This document shows positions 1 to 20,434 of a stretch of 42,291 nucleotides of DNA, piece after piece. The notes below the pieces were generated by a model. It was not told where the DNA came from. It saw only the letters and a program-made list of their open reading frames with translations, and made no database searches. The position numbers and the translations under genes were made by a program. Position 1 is the stretch's first letter, and each line of letters opens with the position of its first letter. The DNA comes from Escherichia phage Lidtsur: the sequence record NC_048177.1; one strand, written 5' to 3'.

Positions 1-393
1 ATGTACCGTATCTATGCAAGCGCATATCGTCAGGCAAACGCTGAGTGTGTTAATCTGGCGCTTCATTGCAAGGCACTGCGAACGGTGCAGGATATGTTCG
101 GAGTGATTCCGGTCACACTGACAGGCAAGTTTAACGATGCGTATGAGTTAAGCATGGTCTTCCCTGTCGATGGAATCTACGAAATCAGACAGGCTGTTAA
201 GCTGTTCTGTAAAGCCTTTGAACAGGACTGCATCATGGTAGTGACCGATGATGATGATGCAATCTTCATGGATTCACCATATCCGGGCAAGCCTGCTGGC
301 AAGTTTGTCAGCAAGACTGAGGCCGAAATGGAAGCCGGGCAATTCACTGCTTGGACTTACGATGGTGAGCAATTTTGGGTAGTGGAGGCATAA
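1..393 (+). CDS. hypothetical early protein (130 aa)
   Basis: ORF starts at ATG at position 1; a GGAG Shine-Dalgarno (CAACTGGAGAAATAACT) lies at the last bases of the window, so the gene is intact only if the contig is circularly permuted; acidic DDDD stretch; no recognisable domain. Confidence 0.5.
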   Translation: MYRIYASAYRQANAECVNLALHCKALRTVQDMFGVIPVTLTGKFNDAYELSMVFPVDGIYEIRQAVKLFCKAFEQDCIMVVTDDDDAIFMDSPYPGKPAGKFVSKTEAEMEAGQFTAWTYDGEQFWVVEA

Positions 394-9172: not shown

Positions 9173-9320
9173 GCAAGAGATAATCCGAGCGCAGTACCGC
9201 AAGGGTGACTCGTTCCGTGGCGCTGAGGCGCTGGCCGAGCGTTTCAATGTACCGCCTGCCGACGTAGTGGCAGTGGTTAACTACACCTACCGCAAGGGGA
9301 AAAAGAAAAATGTTCAGTAA
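9129..9320 (+). CDS. hypothetical protein (63 aa)
   Basis: Internal ATG of track ORF 9099-9320 after GGGGAG; overlaps the candidate zinc-ribbon ORF in another frame. Confidence 0.35.
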   Translation: MEERTYRAVPLSLREQEIIRAQYRKGDSFRGAEALAERFNVPPADVVAVVNYTYRKGKKKNVQ

Positions 9321-9981
9321 TGCAGAAGCAAAGCGTGCATGGGCGCGTGAGATTTGTCATGTGTTGCAGGGCGAAGGGTTGAGCTTTGTTGTCGCAGGGG
9401 GTGGGGCAAGGGACACTGCGCTTGGCATCGAGCCTAAAGACTTCGACGTTGTGGTGTATGGCTGGGGCAGCAACGTTGATGAGATAGCTCGTAAGCTGGA
9501 CTGGCTTGATAGTCTGCTTGAGCGGTATGCCCGCGAGCAGGAAATCAACTACGAGTACATGCCAAGCTATCATGATGCAGCAGAGGGTGGCGACTTCGGC
9601 TCCCGGCTGTACGGCGTGTACAAGGTTGGCCCGGTCGATGTAATCATAAGCAAGTGCGGCGCGTGGTCGCAGGTGCTGGCTGAGTTCGACTTAAACCTGA
9701 ACCAGTTCTACTTCCCGTCCAGCATCCCGCGTTACTCTGGTCAGTACAGCCGTGACCCCGGAGACTTCATGGCGTACCCGTACCATCCAGACCTGACGGC
9801 TGCGGATGTTGAATGGTATCCGGCTGTTGCCAATCAAGCTCAGTCGTATGATGAGCTGCTTACTCTGCGAGTCGTACGTCCTGATACCAGCCTCAGCCGC
9901 AGGGTGTACATCGAGCAGAAGCACCACGACAACTACGAAGCACTGGTCGCGTTTGTTAAGCGCAAGTCCGGTGCATCATGA
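9310..9981 (+). CDS. nucleotidyltransferase with CCA-adding enzyme / poly(A) polymerase-type head domain
   Basis: VVAGGGARDTALGIEPKDFDVVV closely matches the class II tRNA-NT/PAP signature (cf. E. coli PcnB [20 protein letters not shown]); only 223 aa, so head-domain-sized. Confidence 0.6.
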   Translation: MFSNAEAKRAWAREICHVLQGEGLSFVVAGGGARDTALGIEPKDFDVVVYGWGSNVDEIARKLDWLDSLLERYAREQEINYEYMPSYHDAAEGGDFGSRLYGVYKVGPVDVIISKCGAWSQVLAEFDLNLNQFYFPSSIPRYSGQYSRDPGDFMAYPYHPDLTAADVEWYPAVANQAQSYDELLTLRVVRPDTSLSRRVYIEQKHHDNYEALVAFVKRKSGAS

Positions 9982-10029: not shown

Positions 10030-12489
10030 GTGAGAGTGCAGATAATCGACGTCGAGACAGAGAACAATGATTGGTTCGGTGAGCTGGCATCGCCACGCTG
10101 CCCGGACAATTATGTTGTCATGCAAGGCCAACGAGACTGCGAACTGACCAAGGATGGCTGGGAGTTCTATGAGCGCGAAGAGTATCGGTACTCGTCTAAG
10201 GAAGACTGGGCAGAGAACAAGTCTCTGCACCTGCATCCTGATACGAAGATGCTGGTAGCCCATAACGCGCCGTACGAATTAAGCTGGTGGTTCATGCACT
10301 ATGGGGATGAGTTCATTGACTTCCTCAAACGTGGTGGCCGTGTGTTCTGTACAGCGTACGCCGAGTACCTGCTGACACACCAGCAATCCCAGTACCCATC
10401 CTTGAACGAGACTGCCCCGAAGTATGGCGGTACTCACAAGGTTGATGCAGTCAAAGCAATGTGGGAGGCAGGTTATCTCACAAGCCAGATTGACCCTGAG
10501 CTGTTGAGTGAATACTTATCAGGGCCGAGCGGCGATATCGAGAACACCACGAAGGTGTTCGTCGGGCAATGGAAGGAACTTGAAAAGCAAGGGATGTTGA
10601 AGATGGCGCTCACTCGCATGGAAGGTATGCTGATGTGGGCGTACATGATGCACTCCGGTCTGCACGTAGACCGCGAGGTTGCCGAGCGCAATCGCCAAGA
10701 GCTGATGACGCAAATCAATGAGCTGACTGATAAGCTGCTGGACTACCTGCCGGACGACATGCCGCAGGAAGCCCGCGAGCAATTCAAGTTCACGTCTGCT
10801 TATCACATGAGCGCATTCGTATTCGGCGGCGTGTTCAAATACAAAGCCCGTGTACCGCGCACGGACGACGGTGGCAATCCTATCTATGTGAAGGTTGACG
10901 CACCGCTGTTCAAGCGCGGCAAGGAGAAGTGGTTGAAGCACAAGGATGAGTGCGTGTTCGATGAAGAGTCCGGGCTATGGTATGACCCGGTAGAGAAGGT
11001 GCACCAGTGTCTTTACACGGCTGGCAAGTTCAAGGGTGAACCCAAGTACGAGCGGCTGGCCACCGATGAGGTGGACATGAAGTGGGGCGAGCTGACCTGT
11101 AAGCTGCCCGGTCTGCTGCGCGACAAAGATAGGCGAGCGCGTGAGATTGCAGACAACCTTCTGTGGGAAGACCCGAAGCGTCCGGGCGAATATCTGCGGC
11201 GCACTGGTGATTGGGTAGGTAAGCGTAAGCTGGCTGATGGCACCCCGGTGTTCAGTACAGCAGGCGAGGTGCTGGACATTCTGGCAGCGCGTAAGATTCC
11301 CGGCGTCGTTGAGATTGCCGACCGCGCTAAAGCACAGAAAGACCTTGGCACCTACTACCTGAGCGAGACGTTCGATGAGGAAGGTAATGTTACTGGTCAG
11401 TCTGGTATGATGCAGTTCATCCAGCCGGACGGTATCGTACACCACACCATCAACATGACCGCCACCGAAACTACTCGACTCTCATCGGCTCGACCAAATA
11501 GCCAGAACCTTCCACGCAAAGGCACGAGTAAAGTTAAGCAGATGTTCACCTCCCGGTTTGGGCCGGACGGTCGCATCGTTGAGGCTGACTACTCAGCGCT
11601 GGAAGTAGTAGGGCTGGCGGGATTCAGTAAGGACAGGAACCTCGTCAAAGCTCTGATGGATAACATCGACATGCACTGTATGCGTCTTGCCGCGCAGCTC
11701 AATGAGGACTACGAAGAGGTCAAGCGTAAGGCTAAGGATGAGTCACATCCTGAGCACGAGCGCTATAGCCAGATGCGTACAGACATTAAGCCCAAGGCAT
11801 TCTCGTATCAGTATGGTGCGACGGCGCGAGGTATCGCGTACTCCACTGGCTGCACTGAGGAAGAGGCGCAGGCATTCATCGACAACGAGAAAGCCCTGTT
11901 CCCGGAAGTGGAATCATGGTTTGAATCGGTTATCTTCCCGGCTGTGGAGCGCAGCGGTCAGAGCAATATCTTCAAGGAGCAGGATGAGAATGGACGGTGG
12001 TGCGTCTACCGCCGTGGCTTCTTCAAGTCTCCGGGTGGTACGTGTTACTCATTCCGTCAGTATGAGAAATGGGATAGCGCAGCCCGCAGTTACTTGATGA
12101 TGTACAAGCCAACCCAAATGCGTAACTATCCGATTCAGGGTGAGACAGCGTTTTGGGTGCAGGGTATCGGTGGCCTGTTGTTCCGCTGGCTGCTGGCCAA
12201 TGACTTCTTTGGTGGGCGCGTGGTTCCCATCAACCAAGTGCATGACGCATTCTATTTCGACATAGCGCCTGACTGCCCGCATGAGTTCTTCGTTGGACTC
12301 AAGGCAATCATGGAGTGCATCCCGGAATACTTCAACCACGTATGGCCTGAGTATGACCTGAGAGTTCCGTTCCCGGCAGAGGTGGAAGCAGGCCCAAGCA
12401 TGTATGAGAAGCACCACGTAGAGACGACAGCCGAAGAAGTGCTGGAGTTCAAATGTAATTTCCTGAAATCTAAGGGTATCAAGATATGA
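10030..12489 (+). CDS. family A DNA polymerase with 3'-5' exonuclease domain
   Basis: GTG start after GGAG; Exo I IIDVETE; Pol motif A DYSALEVV, motif B KAFSYQYGA, motif C QVHDAFYFD; 819 aa. Confidence 0.9.
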   Translation: MRVQIIDVETENNDWFGELASPRCPDNYVVMQGQRDCELTKDGWEFYEREEYRYSSKEDWAENKSLHLHPDTKMLVAHNAPYELSWWFMHYGDEFIDFLKRGGRVFCTAYAEYLLTHQQSQYPSLNETAPKYGGTHKVDAVKAMWEAGYLTSQIDPELLSEYLSGPSGDIENTTKVFVGQWKELEKQGMLKMALTRMEGMLMWAYMMHSGLHVDREVAERNRQELMTQINELTDKLLDYLPDDMPQEAREQFKFTSAYHMSAFVFGGVFKYKARVPRTDDGGNPIYVKVDAPLFKRGKEKWLKHKDECVFDEESGLWYDPVEKVHQCLYTAGKFKGEPKYERLATDEVDMKWGELTCKLPGLLRDKDRRAREIADNLLWEDPKRPGEYLRRTGDWVGKRKLADGTPVFSTAGEVLDILAARKIPGVVEIADRAKAQKDLGTYYLSETFDEEGNVTGQSGMMQFIQPDGIVHHTINMTATETTRLSSARPNSQNLPRKGTSKVKQMFTSRFGPDGRIVEADYSALEVVGLAGFSKDRNLVKALMDNIDMHCMRLAAQLNEDYEEVKRKAKDESHPEHERYSQMRTDIKPKAFSYQYGATARGIAYSTGCTEEEAQAFIDNEKALFPEVESWFESVIFPAVERSGQSNIFKEQDENGRWCVYRRGFFKSPGGTCYSFRQYEKWDSAARSYLMMYKPTQMRNYPIQGETAFWVQGIGGLLFRWLLANDFFGGRVVPINQVHDAFYFDIAPDCPHEFFVGLKAIMECIPEYFNHVWPEYDLRVPFPAEVEAGPSMYEKHHVETTAEEVLEFKCNFLKSKGIKI

Positions 12490-13418
12490 CCAAGCCGAGT
12501 GTATTGAATCGCTTTAATGCTACCGTAGAGCAGTTCGTTGAAGAAGAAGGTGTGGACTTTAACGAAGCCGTCGCTGGTGGTGGTGGTAAGCTGATGCCGG
12601 AAGGTAAGGCACTGGCACGCCTGATTCAGTATGTTGAAGTTGGGCCGCAGCCCATCAAGCAGGATGCAAGCAAGCCGCCTGTCAATAAGTTCTTCCTCAA
12701 GTTCGCAGTGTGGGGTAAGGGCAAAGACAAGCAATCCACCTTCCATGAAGTTGTGGATGGTAAGATGGTTCCCGGCGTAATCCGCACTCAGATGATTGCT
12801 GTGAAGAAAGACCTGAACAGTAAGTCAGGGGCATACAAGCTGTTCAAACGTATGAACCCGGACAAGACTGCTAAGCATTTCGCTCAGCTCATCAACGGCA
12901 CATTCATCCTGCCTATCGTCCACAACGAAAGCGGTGAGGGCGAGAACAAGAAAGTCTACGCTAACATTGACTTAGAGAATATCAGCCTCGCGGTCAACCC
13001 GGTAACTGACGAACCGTTTGACGTGCCGGAAGTGGAAGACGAATCTCTGTTCAAGCTGTTCCTGTGGAACCGTCCGAGCAAAGAGGACTGGGAATCCCTG
13101 TACATCGAAGGTAAGAACGATGAAGGGAAATCGAAGAACTGGATTCAGGATACCCTGCTGTCCAGCCCTGAGTTCCCCGGCTCTCCGCTCGACCTGCTGC
13201 TGAATGGCGGTGGCGCTGGTTCGGCTATCTCTGAACTGCCTGAGCTTGACGAGCCTGAGCAGGAAGAAGTCAAAGAGGTAACGCCGCCGCCGGAAGAGCT
13301 GCCAGTCAAAGGCAAGGGTGGTGCCAAGGGTGCCAAGGGTGCGAAGAAAGGTAGCGAAGAAGCCAAGCCTGAGCCAGACGTAACTGGTGAAGCTGACTTC
13401 GGACTGCCATCCCTGTAA
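12486..13418 (+). CDS. hypothetical protein with K/G-rich repeat and acidic C-terminal region (310 aa)
   Basis: ATG overlaps polymerase stop (ATGA); low-complexity GKGGAKGAKGAKKG followed by acidic tail; function unknown. Confidence 0.6.
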   Translation: MTKPSVLNRFNATVEQFVEEEGVDFNEAVAGGGGKLMPEGKALARLIQYVEVGPQPIKQDASKPPVNKFFLKFAVWGKGKDKQSTFHEVVDGKMVPGVIRTQMIAVKKDLNSKSGAYKLFKRMNPDKTAKHFAQLINGTFILPIVHNESGEGENKKVYANIDLENISLAVNPVTDEPFDVPEVEDESLFKLFLWNRPSKEDWESLYIEGKNDEGKSKNWIQDTLLSSPEFPGSPLDLLLNGGGAGSAISELPELDEPEQEEVKEVTPPPEELPVKGKGGAKGAKGAKKGSEEAKPEPDVTGEADFGLPSL

Positions 13419-13453: not shown

Positions 13454-13651
13454 ATGCGTGAACTTGAAGAGGGCGAGGTCATCTACTACGACGACCCGCG
13501 CAGCATGTCAATAGTAATCAAAAGCCGAAACGAGAGAGTAGAGATGAGCTATGAGATGTTCTTCACGCTCAAGCGAATGTTTGAACAACAGGTAATGGAG
13601 AGAGTCGATGAGCAAATTAAGTCGCTTGTTGTCGGCGGCGGGGGCTATTGA
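13454..13651 (+). CDS. hypothetical protein (65 aa)
   Basis: Internal ATG of track ORF 13436-13651 preceded by GGAGG. Confidence 0.4.
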   Translation: MRELEEGEVIYYDDPRSMSIVIKSRNERVEMSYEMFFTLKRMFEQQVMERVDEQIKSLVVGGGGY

Positions 13652-14585
13652 TGAAGACCAATTCGACGGCTACGTCTCAGGGCGCATACTTCTTTGCGAC
13701 GCAGACTCAACAGTGTATGTGGCCGCAGCCACCACGAAGAGTATTGAGACGGCGAAGACGCGCTTCTGCTCCGGCGTGCTGACTGCTAAGTTCCTTGCCA
13801 ATGCACAATCGGTGCGTATCGAGCTGACTGCTGCGGAGTGCAAGAAAGCTGGCCGCTACAAGCTGCGGGGTGTCAAGCTGTATCAGGGCAACCGGGACAA
13901 AGAGAAGAAGCCGGGACTGGTTGAGCCATTGCGCAAAGCGATTGGCCGCAACATGTTCAACGTACCTGATGGTGAGGATTGGTACGTCCACCTGAACTTT
14001 GAGTTCGAGGCTGACGACACCTTAATCATGGACGCTTGGACTATCGGTATTGACGACGCTGTTATCTATAGCGCTGACAAAGACCTGCGTTGCTGGCCGG
14101 GTAGATTCCTTGACCCGTACGACAACAAAGTGCTGGAGCCATGCAAAGGTATCGGCACCTTGTGGTGGCATGAGACGAAGAGTGACAAGTCTCTGGTCGG
14201 CCACGGCCCCCTGTTCTTTTGGGCGCAGATGCTGATGGGCGATTCCGCCGACAACATCTCAGGCGTCAAGGGCATTGGCAAGCAGACAGCTTACGACATG
14301 CTTGAGCAATATTGCGAGAGCGATGATGAGTCTGCTGTTGCTGAGTTCGTGCTTCGTGAGTACATGAGGCGTGACCAAAATCCGTGGCCGGAAGCCGTAG
14401 CATTATGGCTGTACCGTACGCCGACCTACTCATTCGCAGCCCACTTAAACACGCTGACCTTGAGCAAGGAGCTGCGTGTCTGGCTGCATAAGAAACTGGG
14501 TGAGGAATGGTATGCAGAAAGTGACTGGCGCGACTCTATTGCAGCTTCGGAAGAATGCGATGGGTTGCAGTTGCCCGCTCTGTAA
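13608..14585 (+). CDS. 5'-3' exonuclease (FEN / RNase H-like flap endonuclease family)
   Basis: GDSADNISGVKGIGKQTA matches the helix-hairpin-helix signature of 5'-3' exonucleases; acidic EADD and SADKD clusters. Confidence 0.8.
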   Translation: MSKLSRLLSAAGAIDEDQFDGYVSGRILLCDADSTVYVAAATTKSIETAKTRFCSGVLTAKFLANAQSVRIELTAAECKKAGRYKLRGVKLYQGNRDKEKKPGLVEPLRKAIGRNMFNVPDGEDWYVHLNFEFEADDTLIMDAWTIGIDDAVIYSADKDLRCWPGRFLDPYDNKVLEPCKGIGTLWWHETKSDKSLVGHGPLFFWAQMLMGDSADNISGVKGIGKQTAYDMLEQYCESDDESAVAEFVLREYMRRDQNPWPEAVALWLYRTPTYSFAAHLNTLTLSKELRVWLHKKLGEEWYAESDWRDSIAASEECDGLQLPAL

Positions 14586-14892
14586 TCAGCCAATGACAGA
14601 CCTCAAGCTGATGGTTGTTGACCACGACCACAAGACTGGGGAAATCAGGGGTGTCATTTGCAGGTGGTGCAATGCGCAGCTTGGCAAGATGGAGAACGCC
14701 GCGAACAGAGCCAAGCGGGAACTGACCGTCGAAGAGTGGTTGGCCAATGCCATGACGTGGCGGCTGACCGCTCGCAGTGGTTTGATGTATCCGACCCACA
14801 AGTCGGAAGCAGAGAAGAAAGAGGCCGCCGCGCTTAAACGTAAGAAAGCGGCAGCGACAAAGGCACGCGCTGTAATCACGAAGGGGAAATAA
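14512..14892 (+). CDS. endonuclease VII-like Holliday junction resolvase
   Basis: CPLCN...VVDHDHKTGEIRGVICRWCNAQLG matches the endonuclease VII zinc-binding His-Me finger pattern; internal ATG with GAGGA SD preferred over the track GTG at 14476. Confidence 0.75.
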   Translation: MQKVTGATLLQLRKNAMGCSCPLCNQPMTDLKLMVVDHDHKTGEIRGVICRWCNAQLGKMENAANRAKRELTVEEWLANAMTWRLTARSGLMYPTHKSEAEKKEAAALKRKKAAATKARAVITKGK

Positions 14893-16013
14893 TGAAGCTG
14901 TCCGATGAGCAGTTGAAAGAAGATATGCTGGCAGGTCTTGGCACCAAGGCCATCGCCGACAAGCACGACATGACAGAAAGCGCTATCCGCTACCGTAAGC
15001 GCCAGCTTGCAAAGGGTGGTTGGAGTCCTGACCACGACATGACCAAGCAGGTGCCTGAGCCGTACATGGTTAAGGGTACGTCAACGCTGTATGACAAAGA
15101 CGGCAACGTCGCACTCCAGTGGGTTAAGACGGCGATAGACCATGAGCGTGAGCTGGCTCTGTTGCAGGAAGCAGTCGATGCTATCTGTGAAGAGATTAAG
15201 CCGGAGCAACCACGCCAGTACCGTGGCGGGCCAGCACCGAAAGAGTTGCTCGACCTGTTCATCCTGACAGACTACCACCTCGGTATGCTGTCTTGGGCGG
15301 AAGAGACTGGCGCTGACTGGGATATGAAGATTGCGGAAGACCTGCTGGTCAAGTGGTTCGCTGCTGCAATCGAAGCCGCGCCCCCGGCGCAAGTGGCCAT
15401 CCTCGGTCAGCTCGGCGACTTCCTGCACTGGGATGGTCTGGACGCAGTGACCCCATCGAGTGGTCATGTGCTGGATGCAGACACCCGGTTCCAGAAGCTG
15501 GTGCGTGTAGCCATTCGTGCGCAGCGCCGCATCATCGCAATGCTGCTGGACAAGTTCCCGCAGGTTCATGTGGTGTGTGCTGAGGGCAACCACGATATGG
15601 CCAGCTCTATCTGGTTACGTGAGATGCTGTACACGCTGTACGCTGATGAGCCTCGCGTCACTGTTGACCGTAGCCCTGACCCGTACTACTGCTATGAGCA
15701 CGGCGAGACTGCGCTGTTCTTCCACCACGGCCACAAGCGCAAAGCTGAGCAGCTTGAGACTGTGCTGGTGGCGAAGTTCCGCGAAGTGTATGGCAGAACC
15801 AAACATGCTTACGCTCACGTCGGGCACCTCCACCATAAGAAAGTGTTGGAGACTCCGGTGATGATTATCGAGCAGCACCAGACGCTGGCAGCTAAGGATG
15901 CTTATGCCTCGCGTGGCGGCTGGTTGAGTGAGCGTAGCGCCAGCGTTATTACTTATCACACACGATATGGTGAGGTTGCTCGCTTCACTATCAGCCCGGA
16001 GATGTTAAGTTGA
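14892..16013 (+). CDS. metallophosphoesterase-type DNA exonuclease with N-terminal HTH-like segment
   Basis: GNHD and FFHHGH motifs typical of calcineurin-like phosphoesterases; N-terminal LGTKAIADKHDMTESAIRYRKRQL resembles a helix-turn-helix. Confidence 0.6.
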   Translation: MKLSDEQLKEDMLAGLGTKAIADKHDMTESAIRYRKRQLAKGGWSPDHDMTKQVPEPYMVKGTSTLYDKDGNVALQWVKTAIDHERELALLQEAVDAICEEIKPEQPRQYRGGPAPKELLDLFILTDYHLGMLSWAEETGADWDMKIAEDLLVKWFAAAIEAAPPAQVAILGQLGDFLHWDGLDAVTPSSGHVLDADTRFQKLVRVAIRAQRRIIAMLLDKFPQVHVVCAEGNHDMASSIWLREMLYTLYADEPRVTVDRSPDPYYCYEHGETALFFHHGHKRKAEQLETVLVAKFREVYGRTKHAYAHVGHLHHKKVLETPVMIIEQHQTLAAKDAYASRGGWLSERSASVITYHTRYGEVARFTISPEMLS

Positions 16014-16228
16014 GCAGGACACTGTACTCAGATAGTGTGGTGCAGCTCAAAGAGGACGGCCTCTCGATTGACTGGGAGGCTCGTACTCAGGTTGACCTGT
16101 ATCCCGATGGCACCGTCTGCATCTCGCAGGACGGAGAAGAAGTATGGCTCCCTTGGGCCTACGTCAAAGATATCATCTTTGCTTTAGAGGAAGCTCACGA
16201 TGCAACTGAAAGACACCGTGGTTGTTGA
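16010..16228 (+). CDS. hypothetical protein (72 aa), TTG start, doubtful
   Basis: Track ORF with non-ATG start overlapping both neighbours. Confidence 0.25.
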   Translation: MSRTLYSDSVVQLKEDGLSIDWEARTQVDLYPDGTVCISQDGEEVWLPWAYVKDIIFALEEAHDATERHRGC

Positions 16229-16715
16229 CCTTGATGGTACGCTGGCCGATGGCCGCTGGCGATTACACCTGATGCCGCCGCCTGAACGCCGCCACTTAGA
16301 CGAGGCTTGGGCTGAGTTCAATCTGGCTGGTATTGATGACCCGCCGTTTCAGGACACCATTGATATTGTGAACGCACTGGCCCTAACGTATCGCATTATC
16401 ATCCTGACCGGGCGCGGGGCTATTGCTCGTGAAGTAACTGAGCAGTGGCTTGAAGACAACGGCGTCGTTTATGACAAGCTCATCATGCGTGAGATTGGCG
16501 ATTGCCGTCAGGACACCGAGGTCAAGCGTACCGCGCTGGAAGACATTGGCCTCGACAACATCGTATGCGCATTCGACGACCTACCGCACATCGTTGACTT
16601 CATGCGCAGCCTTGGCCTGACCGTGTACGAGGTTACTCGCTATGAGGATGGCCACGATTATGTGCGTGCAAATGCCAAGTACAAAGATGGGGAGTATCAG
16701 GATGAGCAAGCGTAA
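16200..16715 (+). CDS. HAD-superfamily phosphatase
   Basis: HAD motif I VVVDLDGTL, motif II IIILTGR, C-terminal FDD; GAGGAA SD. Confidence 0.6.
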   Translation: MQLKDTVVVDLDGTLADGRWRLHLMPPPERRHLDEAWAEFNLAGIDDPPFQDTIDIVNALALTYRIIILTGRGAIAREVTEQWLEDNGVVYDKLIMREIGDCRQDTEVKRTALEDIGLDNIVCAFDDLPHIVDFMRSLGLTVYEVTRYEDGHDYVRANAKYKDGEYQDEQA

Positions 16716-17067
16716 TGAGGCAGCACCTGAAAACAAAGTAGCAGGTGGCCCCGGTGGTATGAAGTATGATGGCGGCAAGCCTCGCATGGCGCTGGTGTTC
16801 GACGGTATGCCACGAGCGCTGGAAGCTGTCGGGCAGGTGCTGACCTTCGGTGCTCAGAAGTATGCAGCTCATTCGTGGCAGACCGTGCCGGAAGGTGAGG
16901 AACGCTACAAGTCTGCGCTGCTGCGCCACCTGACGGCGGTTGGCCGGGGTGAGGAACTGGACAGTGAATCTGGCCTGCACCACCTCGCACATGCAGCGTG
17001 CAACGCGCTGTTCATTCTGGAACTGGAACTGAGGAAACGTGATGAGTCGTTATCAAAAAGCAATTGA
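16702..17067 (+). CDS. hypothetical protein, possibly nucleotide diphosphohydrolase-like N-terminal domain
   Basis: Internal ATG after GGGGAG; MKYDGGKPRMALVF...VLTFGAQKYAAHSWQ matches from memory a phage domain annotated as dATP/dGTP diphosphohydrolase N-terminal; unverified. Confidence 0.4.
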   Translation: MSKRNEAAPENKVAGGPGGMKYDGGKPRMALVFDGMPRALEAVGQVLTFGAQKYAAHSWQTVPEGEERYKSALLRHLTAVGRGEELDSESGLHHLAHAACNALFILELELRKRDESLSKSN

Positions 17068-17308
17068 AGACACAGTGTTAGACCAGAAAGAGTGCGCTGC
17101 CTGCCACGGCAGTGGCACCTTCACGGGCATGACTATCCGGCATGAAATCGTGCAGATGGAGTGTGAAGCCTGTGGTGGTACTGGTACGTGTGACTCCCTG
17201 CTGCAACTCTCTGTGCTGCGCGATTTAGGTATGCGCAAACGTGTTGAGCCGGGTTACGCCGAACCAACATTCATTGATGTGCCGAACAACAAAGACGATT
17301 ACGAGTAA
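17042..17308 (+). CDS. small zinc-ribbon protein (88 aa)
   Basis: Two CxxC pairs (CAACHGSG, CEACGG); GAGGA SD. Confidence 0.45.
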   Translation: MSRYQKAIEDTVLDQKECAACHGSGTFTGMTIRHEIVQMECEACGGTGTCDSLLQLSVLRDLGMRKRVEPGYAEPTFIDVPNNKDDYE

Positions 17309-17314
17309 GGGGAT

Positions 17315-19747
17315 ATGATGGATTTGCTGGCAGAACAGATTCGACTGGAAGAAGAAGCCCGCGCACGCCATCGCGCGGGGTGGTTAGACAACATCAAAGC
17401 AGCGATGGATGAAGGGCGGGCATCGGCTGTGCCGCTGTTGCAGCGTGCAATGGTTAAGGCTTATCCGACTGTCGAAGCAGCTATGCAGGAAATCCTGAAT
17501 GAGAATACTCGCGGCTTTGGTGCGCAGTACCGGACGCACATGCGGGAGATTGGGGTGAAGACCTGCGCTACTCTGGCGCTCAGCATGGCAATGTCAGGGG
17601 CGGTAGAGAAGGTCGCTGTTACGCAGCACCTACGCAGCATGGGGCAGGCTCTAATGGCTGAGGTGGTGTACCACAAAGCCTCAGCCAGAGGTGCGCGTGA
17701 AGCGGCTTACATGCAGCGTGTGGGGCAAGACGTTAAGCGCTCCAAGTCGAAGTCTCCCAATCACATCTACAACAAGGCCCGCGCATCGGCGGCTAACGTT
17801 GGGGTGCACATGGATGTGTTGCCTCAGCGTGCGCTCATCACAATCGGTAAGATGATGATGCGTGCAGTCGAACCAACAGGTCTGGTCAAGACTATCCGTA
17901 TCGGTGGCAGCGCCAGACAGCGTGGCACTGCACACTTCGCTCTGCATGATGATGTGATTATCATGCTCAACGACTGGATTAAGCTGCCCGATATGACAGT
18001 AGGCTGCTACCCAGTGATGATTATCCCGCCTGCGGAAATTAATCCCAATGGGCTTGGTGGTATGTGGCACTCTCCGGGGCAGGCGGCGACGTATCAGGCA
18101 ATCAGCCGACTGCGCCACAAAGAGTACCGCGCTCAGAAGGTAGACCCGCTACCCATTATCGAGCCGTGTATGATGCTCAGTGGCACGCCGTTCCGTATCA
18201 ATAAGATGGTGCTGGAGTTCCTACAAAACAACCACACTGGCGTTATGGGCCTGCCTGCTGCGCCAGTGGAACCTAAGCTGCCATTCACAATCCCGGAAGG
18301 TGTGAGCTTTGCTCAGTACATCAGCAGGTTCCCGCCTGAAATGCAGCAGAGGATGGACGCTGAGGCGCATGAATTTAAGGTTAAAACCCGCATGTACCAT
18401 AATGAGTACCGCAGGTTTACAACCAAGGTGCAGGCGCTCGGAAGTGCGCTGGCTGAGGCTAAGCGCTACTGTGCATACGAGCGTATCTACCTGCCGACAT
18501 ACGCCGACACTCGTGGCCGAATCTACTACGCATCGTCTCTGAATCCTCAAGGTATCGACGCAATAAGGGCGCTGCTAGAATTAGCCGACGCTGTGCCGCT
18601 TGGCAGTGAAGGGTTGTTCTGGCTGAAAGTGCATGTGGCCAACTGCTTCGGCTATGACGCCACTGACTTTGAAGACCGGGCGGCTTGGACTGACAAGACC
18701 CTGCCAAGACTTCGTGAAGCCTGCCGACTGCCGGAGGCTTACGACTCATTCTGGTCTGAGGCCGATAGTCCTCTGTGTGCATGGGCAGCTTCTGTAGAGC
18801 TGGTGCGTGCGCTGGATAGCGGCAACCCGGAAGAGTACCCGTGCCGCGTTGTTACGCAGTGGGATGCAACTTGCTCAGGTCTACAGCACCTGTCGGCTAT
18901 GCTCCGTGATGAGGTGGGCGGTGCTGCCGTCAACCTGATTAACTCGCCGGGGCGCAAAGCCGATATCTACCTCAAGACTGCTGACGCAGCAATGGCAGCA
19001 CTGCGCGAGTCTGAGGCATCCTGCAAGACTGAGCTGGGGCAGTGGCTGTTGAAGATTGGCATCCAGCGTGCGATGGCCAAGAAGCCTGTAATGACCTACG
19101 TTTACGGGGCAACCCGCCACGGTATGGTTGATTACTATGCCCTGTACCTGCGCGAGAACAACATCCCATTGCCTCCCGGACACAGCCTGTTCGAGTGTGC
19201 GATGTTCATTGCCGGGATTATGTGGGACGCTATACCGCGAGTGGTTCCTAAAGCGGCAGAGCTTATGGCTTGGTTGCAATCTCTGGCGACTATGGTGGCA
19301 GAGAAAGGAGAGTACGTTGAGGTGATAGCTCCGTCAGGCTTACGGATGGTTAATCTGTATCAGGCTTCGAAAGAGGCAGCTATGGGCCTGAACCTAATGG
19401 GTGTGCACGGCATTAAGATTAGGGAATGGCTGGATAAGCCGGACTCCCGTAAGTGTGCAGCAGCTATCTCACCCAACTTTGTGCACGCTATGGATGCCAG
19501 CCACATGATGAAAGTGCTGTGGGAAATGTGGAATAACGGGGTTTACATGGTGTCTATCCATGACTCCTTCGGCGTTGCGGCAGCACACGCTGGGCTGTTG
19601 CACAGAGTCATCCGTGAAAAATTCGTGCAGATGTACGAGGAACATGACCCTATTCAGCAACTTGCTGAAAGATATGGTGTTGAGCCTCCGGCTAAAGGCC
19701 AGTTGGATATCAAAGAGGTGCTGAAATCTACCAAGTTTTTCTGCTGA
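17315..19747 (+). CDS. single-subunit DNA-dependent RNA polymerase (T7-like)
   Basis: WDATCSGLQH (motif A), AKKPVMTYVYGATRHG (motif B) and VSIHDSFGV (motif C) parallel T7 RNAP catalytic motifs; 810 aa. Confidence 0.9.
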   Translation: MMDLLAEQIRLEEEARARHRAGWLDNIKAAMDEGRASAVPLLQRAMVKAYPTVEAAMQEILNENTRGFGAQYRTHMREIGVKTCATLALSMAMSGAVEKVAVTQHLRSMGQALMAEVVYHKASARGAREAAYMQRVGQDVKRSKSKSPNHIYNKARASAANVGVHMDVLPQRALITIGKMMMRAVEPTGLVKTIRIGGSARQRGTAHFALHDDVIIMLNDWIKLPDMTVGCYPVMIIPPAEINPNGLGGMWHSPGQAATYQAISRLRHKEYRAQKVDPLPIIEPCMMLSGTPFRINKMVLEFLQNNHTGVMGLPAAPVEPKLPFTIPEGVSFAQYISRFPPEMQQRMDAEAHEFKVKTRMYHNEYRRFTTKVQALGSALAEAKRYCAYERIYLPTYADTRGRIYYASSLNPQGIDAIRALLELADAVPLGSEGLFWLKVHVANCFGYDATDFEDRAAWTDKTLPRLREACRLPEAYDSFWSEADSPLCAWAASVELVRALDSGNPEEYPCRVVTQWDATCSGLQHLSAMLRDEVGGAAVNLINSPGRKADIYLKTADAAMAALRESEASCKTELGQWLLKIGIQRAMAKKPVMTYVYGATRHGMVDYYALYLRENNIPLPPGHSLFECAMFIAGIMWDAIPRVVPKAAELMAWLQSLATMVAEKGEYVEVIAPSGLRMVNLYQASKEAAMGLNLMGVHGIKIREWLDKPDSRKCAAAISPNFVHAMDASHMMKVLWEMWNNGVYMVSIHDSFGVAAAHAGLLHRVIREKFVQMYEEHDPIQQLAERYGVEPPAKGQLDIKEVLKSTKFFC

Positions 19748-19832: not shown

Positions 19833-20015
19833 ATGAAAGAATCTCCAGTTGATAGAGTAACCTTCAACAAAGCTCAGTTAGCTTACCTTGAGAAACGGTT
19901 CGGTACGTGGTCTGATGTAGGTAAGACGATAGTACCAGAGACAAACCTGACTCAGCTCAATAGGGAAGCAGGTAAGCAAGAGGTGCTGGACTGTATCCGT
20001 GAGAGGACAGTGTAA
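19833..20015 (+). CDS. hypothetical protein (60 aa)
   Basis: Track ORF; GAGAGAG SD. Confidence 0.4.
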   Translation: MKESPVDRVTFNKAQLAYLEKRFGTWSDVGKTIVPETNLTQLNREAGKQEVLDCIRERTV

Positions 20016-20434
20016 TGAGAGTGACTGCTAAGGATAACCTACAACACACAACGATGCCTCTCGATATTAGGGAGGCTGTAGCTCAAGGTATTCAGCATGA
20101 GAGAACATGGTCTGACTTGCCTTGCGATGTGATTGTGGAAGAGATGTACAAAGCAACAGCCAACGGTTGCACAGATGTGTATGTCACAGATGATGACGAT
20201 TCACTGATGGGTGTAGCTCACATCGGTCAACTGTTCGATATCCATGTCGGCGATATGGCTGTAGTGATGGCCTCCTATGTGTGGCCTCAGTATCGTAATC
20301 GCGGAGTGATGCGTGCCATTCTCCGCGAGTTGAAGAAAGCTGCCCGCAGAGCCGGGTTGCGCTGGTGCGGTTACTCCCACATGGTACGTCCTTATGTTCA
20401 GGAGTACCGCTTTATTGATTTGGAGAAACCGTAA
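20015..20434 (+). CDS. hypothetical protein with weak GNAT acetyltransferase-like motif
   Basis: VWPQYRNRGVMRAILREL resembles the acetyl-CoA-binding motif A of GNAT enzymes; weak. Confidence 0.35.
   Translation: MRVTAKDNLQHTTMPLDIREAVAQGIQHERTWSDLPCDVIVEEMYKATANGCTDVYVTDDDDSLMGVAHIGQLFDIHVGDMAVVMASYVWPQYRNRGVMRAILRELKKAARRAGLRWCGYSHMVRPYVQEYRFIDLEKP

Follow-up and report, generated by a model that had tools for sequence, protein, structure and literature searches.

We characterized a block of three genes that lies directly upstream of the RNA polymerase gene of Escherichia phage Lidtsur, using the 42,291-nucleotide sequence record NC_048177.1 (hereafter the window, meaning the whole stretch of DNA that was analysed). 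The 42.3-kb window is essentially a complete genome, that of an Autographiviridae phage of phiKMV type, with every gene on the + strand. The explanation that we favour, and regard as reasonably probable, is that these are the last accessory genes of a DNA-metabolism operon and would encode a PNKP-type HAD phosphatase (gene 1), a DUF5664-family hydrolase of deoxynucleoside triphosphates (dNTPs; gene 2) and a zinc-knuckle protein (gene 3), brought together by synteny and not by a shared pathway. A first-pass annotation made from the sequence alone had described a three-gene cluster at 16200–17308 upstream of the polymerase gene; the open reading frames (ORFs) do lie there, and the RNA polymerase gene follows at 17315–19747. 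As mechanically listed, the three + strand ORFs are 16200–16715 (171 residues), 16642–17067 (141 residues) and 17039–17308 (89 residues). With start codons assigned, the genes are as follows.

16200–16715, + strand: HAD phosphatase gene (gene 1); ATG at 16200, GAGGAAG at 16187–16193; 171 residues, without a kinase domain
16702–17067, + strand: DUF5664 gene (gene 2); ATG at 16702, GGGGAG at 16689–16694 with a 7-nt spacer; 121 residues
17042–17308, + strand: zinc-knuckle gene (gene 3); ATG at 17042, GAGGA at 17031–17035; 88 residues

Each of the three genes is preceded by its own Shine–Dalgarno site (read from the DNA), and neighbours overlap by 14 nt (HAD and DUF5664 genes) and 26 nt (DUF5664 and zinc-knuckle genes), an overlapping arrangement of stop and start codons that suggests translational coupling. 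The listed 141-residue ORF contains 'MKYDGGKPRMALVF...VLTFGAQKY...W'; its mechanical start at 16642 is probably unused and its true start is probably the ATG at 16702, given the GGGGAG 7 nt before this codon and the annotation of relatives (aldrigsur and smaasur) from the same 'MSKRG'. On the basis of profile scores, conserved homologues for all three and a syntenic block in related phages, we take these to be real genes and not chance ORFs.

Gene 1 matched the Pfam family HAD_PNKP (PF25109; E = 3.8e-16, 59.9 bits, cut-off 27.6) over profile positions 2–139 of 143, and phrog_415 in PHROGs (3.8e-53). Searches by sequence led to two solved relatives only, Pnkp1 (4xrp; 1.6e-7) and T4 polynucleotide kinase, the latter through its phosphatase domain (5uj0 and 1ltq). 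Motif I of the protein reads VVVDLDGTL (D10-L-D12-G-T14) and is invariant in 122 homologues, among which D10, D12, G13, T14, R21, T70, G71, R72, R97, D105, K109, D126 and D127 are at least 95% conserved. In a residue-numbered PDB alignment with 1ltq, T70/R72 paired with S211/R213, R97 with R246, D105 with D254, K109 with K258 and D126/D127 with D277/D278, and R21 occupies the position of T4 R176. Motif II (T70-G-R72), the motif III lysine, the motif IV acidic pair and the arginines specific to PNKP are all present. Seen from the side of T4 Pnkp (PseT, 1ltq), whose HAD domain is homologous, D165, D167, R176, S211, R213, R246, D254, K258, D277 and D278 all have equivalents in gene 1; mutagenesis by the Shuman laboratory reportedly identified those phosphatase residues of T4 Pnkp as the essential ones. 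Gene 1 is thus predicted to be a stand-alone PNKP-type HAD phosphatase with complete catalytic motifs, and the polynucleotide 3′-phosphatase type that the first-pass annotation had proposed for it agrees with both the PF25109 match and the 4xrp and 1ltq relatives.

No P-loop 5′-kinase domain is present in gene 1, in which the HAD domain spans residues 5–146 of 171 and no kinase Pfam match was obtained. Likewise, a kinase domain occurs in none of the 120 listed homologues (149–264 residues), which have only Pfam families of HAD/phosphatase type. Labels such as 'polynucleotide kinase' and '5′-kinase/3′-phosphatase' therefore overstate what gene 1 and these homologues contain, and the widespread 'polynucleotide kinase' of related records is an over-annotation that should read 'PNKP-type phosphatase'. 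The HAD family is found in 1822 of 50,697 phage records, mostly of Klebsiella phages, Escherichia phages and actinophages. One such protein, from the T4-like Escherichia phage Delraymugoa (Krischvirus; L086, 1189–1665), is a stand-alone HAD_PNKP phosphatase of 158 residues that scores 149 bits against the window HAD family profile and is encoded directly downstream of nrdB. This neighbourhood may point to a role in nucleotide metabolism for PNKP-type phosphatases that lack a kinase.

Gene 2 matched PF18909 (DUF5664, dGTP_diPhyd_N, 'dATP/dGTP diphosphohydrolase N-terminal') with E = 1.2e-33 and 115.5 bits (cut-off 27), and phrog_19680 in PHROGs (1.2e-57). The profile hidden Markov model (HMM) searches that had been suggested as a check on the first-pass annotation consequently place both the HAD and the DUF5664 proteins above the Pfam cut-offs, and its match of the second ORF to a phage domain associated with dATP/dGTP diphosphohydrolases was borne out, the family being tied to dNTP hydrolysis (PMC12884076). 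PF18909 is abundant (21,545 cluster representatives at 50% identity, with E ≤ 1e-3, in a library of 1.84 billion proteins) and DUF5664 occurs in 794 of the 50,697 phage records, mostly of Vibrio and Pseudomonas phages. Across 152 diverse members, K21, D23, K26, G50, K53, Y54, W59, R68, Y69, A72, R75, H76, G83, E84, D87, E89, H94 and H97 are near-invariant, a conserved charged pattern of the kind expected of a metal-dependent phosphohydrolase site. The AlphaFold2 model of gene 2 (pLDDT 85) consists of three long helices following a disordered leader; a Foldseek search with this model returned no match in the PDB and only family members in BFVD, and there is no solved structure for the DUF5664 family. 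The domain ends six residues before the stop codon, so that gene 2 has no C-terminal extension and no DUF550/MazG-like domain. Other architectures occur among DUF5664 proteins. The metagenomic protein P0196 (370 residues) carries a MazG-like PRA-PH domain (27–108) N-terminal to DUF5664 (245–336), the opposite domain order to that of the DUF5664–DUF550 fusion MazZ, and several other members have extensions of 100–250 residues without a Pfam match.

The biochemical assignment of gene 2 leans on work with Arthrobacter phage Wayne, whose stand-alone DUF5664 protein hydrolyses dATP, dUTP and dGTP to the deoxynucleoside monophosphate (dNMP) and pyrophosphate (PPi) with a kcat of 0.48 s−1 and a Km of 20 μM for dATP, and is inactive on ribonucleoside triphosphates (NAR 2026; PMC12884076). 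Hydrolysis of dNTPs to dNMP and PPi has been demonstrated only for this protein and for MazZ of the Z-genome phage SH-Ab 15497, the DUF5664–DUF550 fusion from which PF18909 takes its name (PMC12884076). The Wayne protein (ALY10775.1; L004, 37626–38222) has 198 residues, with the domain at 98–195 (PF18909, 3.5e-32) and no other Pfam domain. Gene 2 is 43% identical to it over 77 residues, and the two share G50, K53, Y54, W59, Y69, A72, R75, H76, G83, E84, D87, E89 and H94; of these, K53, Y54, W59, R75, H76, E84, D87, E89 and H94 are also found in at least 93% of the 152 members. The origin of the Pfam name in the SH-Ab 15497 fusion would suit another reading, which we consider improbable, in which gene 2 is a nucleotide-binding or regulatory/adaptor subunit and not a hydrolase, the MazG-like DUF550 half of the fusion being the active one. 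Such a subunit would be in keeping with a negative hhalign comparison between DUF5664 and the MazG-like PRA-PH domain of P0196 (no similarity; probability 0.2%), with the lack of a solved enzyme fold matching the gene 2 model and with the absence from the window protein of the N-terminal region of the assayed Wayne protein. However, the Wayne protein is active alone, without another Pfam domain, the strictly conserved K, D, R, H and E residues within the DUF5664 core are typical of an active site, and core-only versions of 95–125 residues are common in nature. Hydrolysis of dNTPs by gene 2 itself is the interpretation that we retain.

The small size of gene 2 can be traced to a single replacement. 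Alignment by blastn of the window with Logan contig L085 (SRR21707704), which is 99% identical to the window across the three-gene region, paired 16212–16713 with L085 2511–3012 and 16741–20067 with L085 3253–6579, leaving the following stretch between them.

16714–16740, + strand: 27-bp replacement stretch, in place of ~240 bp (L085 3013–3252) in contig L085

This in-frame replacement removes an N-terminal domain of ~71 residues but leaves both the start codon and the entire conserved core in place. The L085 DUF5664 protein has 192 residues and, together with those of J8-65 and aldrigsur, falls in a range of 192–218 residues with an N-terminal domain of ~71–77 residues; this domain of the relatives' proteins has no Pfam match. 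The existence of core-only versions elsewhere indicates that the N-terminal domain is accessory, and gene 2, at 121 residues, appears to be a natural minimal, core-only version of DUF5664.

Gene 3 contains two CxxCxGxG motifs, C18-A-A-C21-H-G-S-G and C41-E-A-C44-G-G-T-G, in which neither GxG and none of the four cysteines (C18, C21, C41 and C44) varies among 10 homologues, in line with its earlier description as a zinc-ribbon ORF. The family is narrow (only 8 homologues in a word-indexed protein search), and the protein matched phrog_6060 in PHROGs (1.5e-12). Against DnaJ_CXXCXGXG (PF00684) it scored 22.6 bits, under the cut-off of 32.7, and its PDB profile matches (zinc fingers of UvrA, DnaJ and Q) were marginal (E = 0.005–2) and limited to the knuckle region. 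We regard gene 3 as a small putative zinc-binding protein with a DnaJ-type knuckle. The phrog_6060 label 'anti-termination protein Q-like' was considered for it and rejected: PDB Q proteins matched at E = 0.5–0.7 over a 35-residue zinc knuckle alone, with no match beyond, and the label is therefore an unsupported membership. That gene 3 immediately precedes the RNA polymerase gene is no more than suggestive.

Under the account that we favour, the three genes would close a DNA-metabolism operon and be co-transcribed with the upstream exonuclease, endonuclease VII and Mre11-like genes and with the downstream RNA polymerase gene. The gene 1 product would act with Mg2+ through an aspartyl-phosphate intermediate on Asp10, in the DxDxT motif, and then release phosphate. 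Its likeliest substrates would be DNA or RNA ends bearing a 3′-phosphate or 2′,3′-cyclic phosphate, or 3′-dNMPs, and its products would be 3′-OH ends usable by polymerases, exonucleases and the host ligase. By homology to the Wayne protein, gene 2 would hydrolyse dATP, dUTP and dGTP to dNMP and PPi with Mn2+/Mg2+, through a candidate active site formed by the E84/D87/E89/H94 cluster and the basic residues K53/R75/H76. As the phage has canonical DNA and no dUTPase that could be recognised, gene 2 would most likely serve to sanitise or tune the dNTP pool (for example, by removing dUTP) and not to make a modified base. Supporting context comes from other members of the family: DUF5664 is joined to a MazG-like PRA-PH domain in P0196 and to DUF550 in SH-Ab 15497 (PMC12884076), and in unrelated phages its gene lies in replication or nucleotide-metabolism surroundings.

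Several observations weigh against parts of this account. The Wayne protein has an extra N-terminal region of 97 residues that the window protein does not have, and lacks the K21-x-D23-x-x-K26 register, R68 and H97, all of which are present in the window protein. The Wayne protein belongs to a divergent DUF5664 branch and, given this divergence, the extra region and the motif register that is not kept, the substrate range and even the activity of the window protein may differ from those of the assayed enzyme. For gene 1, the homologue located after nrdB and a weak profile match to the T5 protein Dmp make a nucleotide-level substrate possible. The HAD family profile aligned with Dmp residues 17–69 at 15.1 bits (E = 1.4e-6 in a two-sequence search).

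The Dmp resemblance also bears on an explanation that we consider unlikely, namely sequential dNTP degradation, in which DUF5664 would convert dNTP to dNMP and PPi and the HAD enzyme, acting as a Dmp-like 5′-deoxynucleotidase, would convert dNMP to deoxynucleoside. The purpose would be to deplete particular (d)nucleotides, for example to blunt nucleotide-based immune signalling such as that of Kongming (dAMP to dITP) or to stop host DNA synthesis. The HAD and DUF5664 genes do adjoin and overlap each other, in the window as in 13 related loci, T5 Dmp has the same 'DLDGT' motif I and aligns with the HAD profile as above, a close HAD homologue adjoins nrdB in a T4-like phage, and T5 Dmp counters Kongming through dAMP removal (bioRxiv 10.1101/2024.12.20.629578). 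However, Pfam and the PDB group the HAD enzyme with PNKP 3′-phosphatases and not with 5′-nucleotidases, the HAD–DUF5664 pair is kept in one lineage only, and degradation from dNTP to nucleoside would be costly for a phage without recognisable salvage kinases. Direct comparison points the same way: BLASTP of gene 1 against T5 Dmp was not significant (E = 0.31), and the 15-bit profile match, which covers the N-terminal third only, is insufficient at database size. Dmp (L087, 124–858) has no Pfam family assigned. We therefore retain homology of gene 1 to T5 Dmp as a low-probability reading only; Dmp may be a remote relative of the gene 1 phosphatase family. A broader version, in which the HAD enzyme and the minimal DUF5664 protein form a counter-defence device that destroys specific deoxynucleotides or nucleotide-derived immune signals (dNTP to dNMP to nucleoside, in the manner of T5 Dmp against Kongming) and the zinc-knuckle protein acts as a dedicated partner of the RNA polymerase, is in our judgement highly unlikely; the specific support for counter-defence consists of gene adjacency and the 15-bit resemblance to Dmp only.

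To characterize the grouping of the genes, we looked for the window neighbours in 80 loci from viral contigs, each with a gene for a DUF5664 relative, using tblastn and the HAD HMM. A HAD gene adjoins DUF5664 in 13 of the 80, all of them phiKMV-like with DUF5664 proteins at least 72% identical to that of the window, and the HAD HMM revealed no further cases among these loci. In eight other phiKMV-like loci, DUF5664 stands before the RNA polymerase gene with no HAD gene. Approximately 26 loci place DUF5664 in a T4-type replication cluster by clamp loader, sliding clamp and RegA-like genes, some of them with ThyX-like genes nearby (both judged from sequence and not from profile matches). DUF5664 thus seems to go with replication and nucleotide metabolism generally, and not specifically with the HAD enzyme. 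The host distributions of the two families also largely differ, with 1822 HAD records (mostly Klebsiella, Escherichia and actinophages) against 794 for DUF5664 (mostly Vibrio and Pseudomonas). A conserved HAD–DUF5664 pair as a general module was rejected, the pair being confined to close relatives.

The first-pass annotation had further joined these genes with a nucleotidyltransferase at 9310 into one module for nucleotide or RNA-end metabolism. The nucleotidyltransferase itself is real—at 9310–9981 (+ strand; 223 residues) it matched phrog_1614 (8.6e-35) and has a GGxxRD..LG..PKDFD head motif of the class-II type known from CCA-adding enzymes and poly(A) polymerases ('GGGARDTALGIEPKDFDV')—but its membership of the module is at best weakly supported, as it lies 6 kb upstream of the HAD gene, past the DNA polymerase gene, and is recorded mostly from phages of different host genera, and the HAD–DUF5664 pair itself is limited to 13 of 80 loci. 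The enzyme was found in 272 phage records (Pseudomonas 134, Vibrio 43) and is common in Autographiviridae; Pseudomonas and Vibrio are not prominent among the HAD records, a comparison made by host genus and not per genome. The T4-like phage with a close HAD homologue has an annotated nucleotidyltransferase of 232 residues and a phosphatase of 151 residues, neither of which resembles the window proteins. A nucleotidyltransferase–HAD link was rejected on these two grounds, the differing host genera and the dissimilar 232-residue enzyme.

These results bear equally on RNA-end repair, the second option of the first-pass annotation and a quite unlikely scenario in our estimate, in which the HAD enzyme would heal the ends left when host anticodon nucleases or toxins cleave tRNA or mRNA and the nucleotidyltransferase would rebuild the 3′ ends. 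The closest solved HAD relatives are indeed RNA-repair enzymes (Pnkp1 of the Pnkp1–Rnl–Hen1 system and T4 Pnkp), and the head motif and phrog_1614 match of the nucleotidyltransferase would be in keeping with such a role. However, CCA-adding enzymes are about twice as long as the nucleotidyltransferase (223 residues), which gave marginal matches in the PDB (E = 0.04), and its distance from the HAD gene and the host-genus distributions count against a joint function. The other parts of an RNA-repair system are lacking as well. Partner enzymes were sought with Pfam in another 20 ORFs of the early and middle regions, in the phrog_862 ORF and in the annotation of the reference relative J8-65; this search found no kinase, no RNA or DNA ligase, no Dut, no thymidylate synthase and no PurZ, nor any PurA-like or HD (DatZ) domain. 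What had been called a module would be at best lineage-specific synteny, and the weak indications available do not make the three genes demonstrably one biochemical pathway, as in the account that we favour.

The remaining genes around the block are those of a DNA-metabolism region, which ends with the RNA polymerase gene and is followed by the portal gene.

13608–14585, + strand: 5′–3′ exonuclease (phrog_107, 2.2e-60; Pfam 5_3_exonuc)
14476–14892, + strand: endonuclease VII (phrog_423, 3e-31; Pfam Endonuclease_7)
14892–16013, + strand: Mre11-like phosphoesterase, 'DNA repair exonuclease' (phrog_704, 3.4e-146)
16010–16228, + strand: small 72-residue ORF, with a 29-nt overlap at the HAD start; J8-65 gp24 and aldrigsur_16 are its syntenic counterparts
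17315–19747, + strand: single-subunit phage RNA polymerase; 810-residue ORF, starting 6 nt past the zinc-knuckle stop codon

The 72-residue ORF has a single, weak Pfam match (IN_DBD_C, 22.1 bits). The RNA polymerase is so named in relatives, and PF00940 was found on the 99%-identical contig L085. A scan of 12–21 kb for sigma-70 promoters and intrinsic terminators gave fewer sites than shuffled sequence, with none above chance, which is consistent with a single long transcript. A GC-rich inverted repeat with an 8-bp stem (CCCGCGCG...CGCGCGGG) is located at 17358–17379, 43 nt inside the RNA polymerase ORF; it was scored as a minus-strand terminator-like site and could fold as a hairpin in the polymerase mRNA. 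Three further genes were noted in passing. The first ORF of the window (1–393, + strand) encodes an S-adenosylmethionine (SAM) lyase, a T3-type anti-restriction enzyme (PF23780, 1.3e-26), and the RefSeq label of its J8-65 orthologue, 'SAM-dependent methyltransferase', looks like a mis-annotation. A GNAT acetyltransferase-like gene (20015–20434, + strand; PF00583, 1.7e-6; phrog_3986) lies between the RNA polymerase and structural genes. Directly 3′ of the DNA polymerase gene, 12486–13418 (+ strand) encodes a conserved protein of 310 residues (phrog_862, 6e-77) with no Pfam match; this protein is found in 20 of the 80 DUF5664 loci, all 20 of which also have the RNA polymerase gene.

By megablast, the Escherichia phages smaasur and J8-65 (genus Bonnellvirus) are ~82% identical to the window over ~80% of its first 25 kb, and Kosakonia, Cronobacter, Enterobacter and Pantoea phages are relatives of similar closeness; we place the window phage as Bonnellvirus-like within the Autographiviridae on this sequence evidence. 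The same block recurs as J8-65 gp25–gp27, LIMEzero gp30–32, aldrigsur_15/14/12 and smaasur_12/11/10, and part of it is already annotated in the records of J8-65, LIMEzero, the '-sur' phages and others, those of J8-65, smaasur and aldrigsur citing similarity to LIMEzero gp30–32. The three genes are orthologues of genes already present in a described genus, where they are in part named, and both enzyme families are known; the window itself therefore matters little. The more general interest lies in DUF5664, which is very abundant and yet has had a single stand-alone protein assayed, from a Z-genome phage. Its role in canonical-DNA phages is a question for the family as a whole and not special to the window, which offers a core-only, 121-residue DUF5664 protein suited to biochemistry and structure work.

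Comparison with known systems places the block most closely beside those of Bonnellvirus and LIMEzero-like phages, which have the same gene order, overlaps and position before the RNA polymerase gene, with protein identities of ~70–90%. The DUF5664 proteins of these syntenic relatives (178–218 residues) have the extra N-terminal domain, in contrast to that of the window, and contig L085 has, ahead of the HAD gene, an HNH gene that the window does not have. This 145-residue HNH_3 homing-endonuclease gene (L085 2075–2512) sits between the small 72/82-residue ORF and the HAD gene and is missing at window ~16212–16219, so that the mobile endonuclease shows presence/absence polymorphism. The HAD domain of gene 1 is homologous to that of Capnocytophaga Pnkp1 (4xrp), an enzyme of the bacterial Pnkp1–Rnl–Hen1 RNA-repair system. 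T4 PseT/Pnkp has a 5′-kinase domain and a partner RNA ligase, whereas gene 1 lacks the kinase domain and no ligase was found in the early and middle ORFs of the window. T5 Dmp is also of HAD type, with a motif I ('WDLDGT') like the 'DLDGT' of gene 1 and a weak collinear profile match, but is a pre-early gene with proven 5′-dNMPase activity. MazZ of Acinetobacter phage SH-Ab 15497 and related PurZ phages (a dATP/dGTP diphosphohydrolase) shares its N-terminal DUF5664 domain with gene 2; it has in addition a C-terminal DUF550, whereas gene 2 has no DUF550/MazG-like domain and no Z-DNA pathway was found in the genome. The Wayne and window proteins carry the same PF18909 domain and both stand alone, without a MazG/DUF550 partner domain, in different settings: the window phage is a canonical-DNA podovirus lacking PurZ, DatZ and DutZ, whereas Wayne is a Z-genome (PurZ0) siphovirus in which the DUF5664 gene adjoins purZ0.

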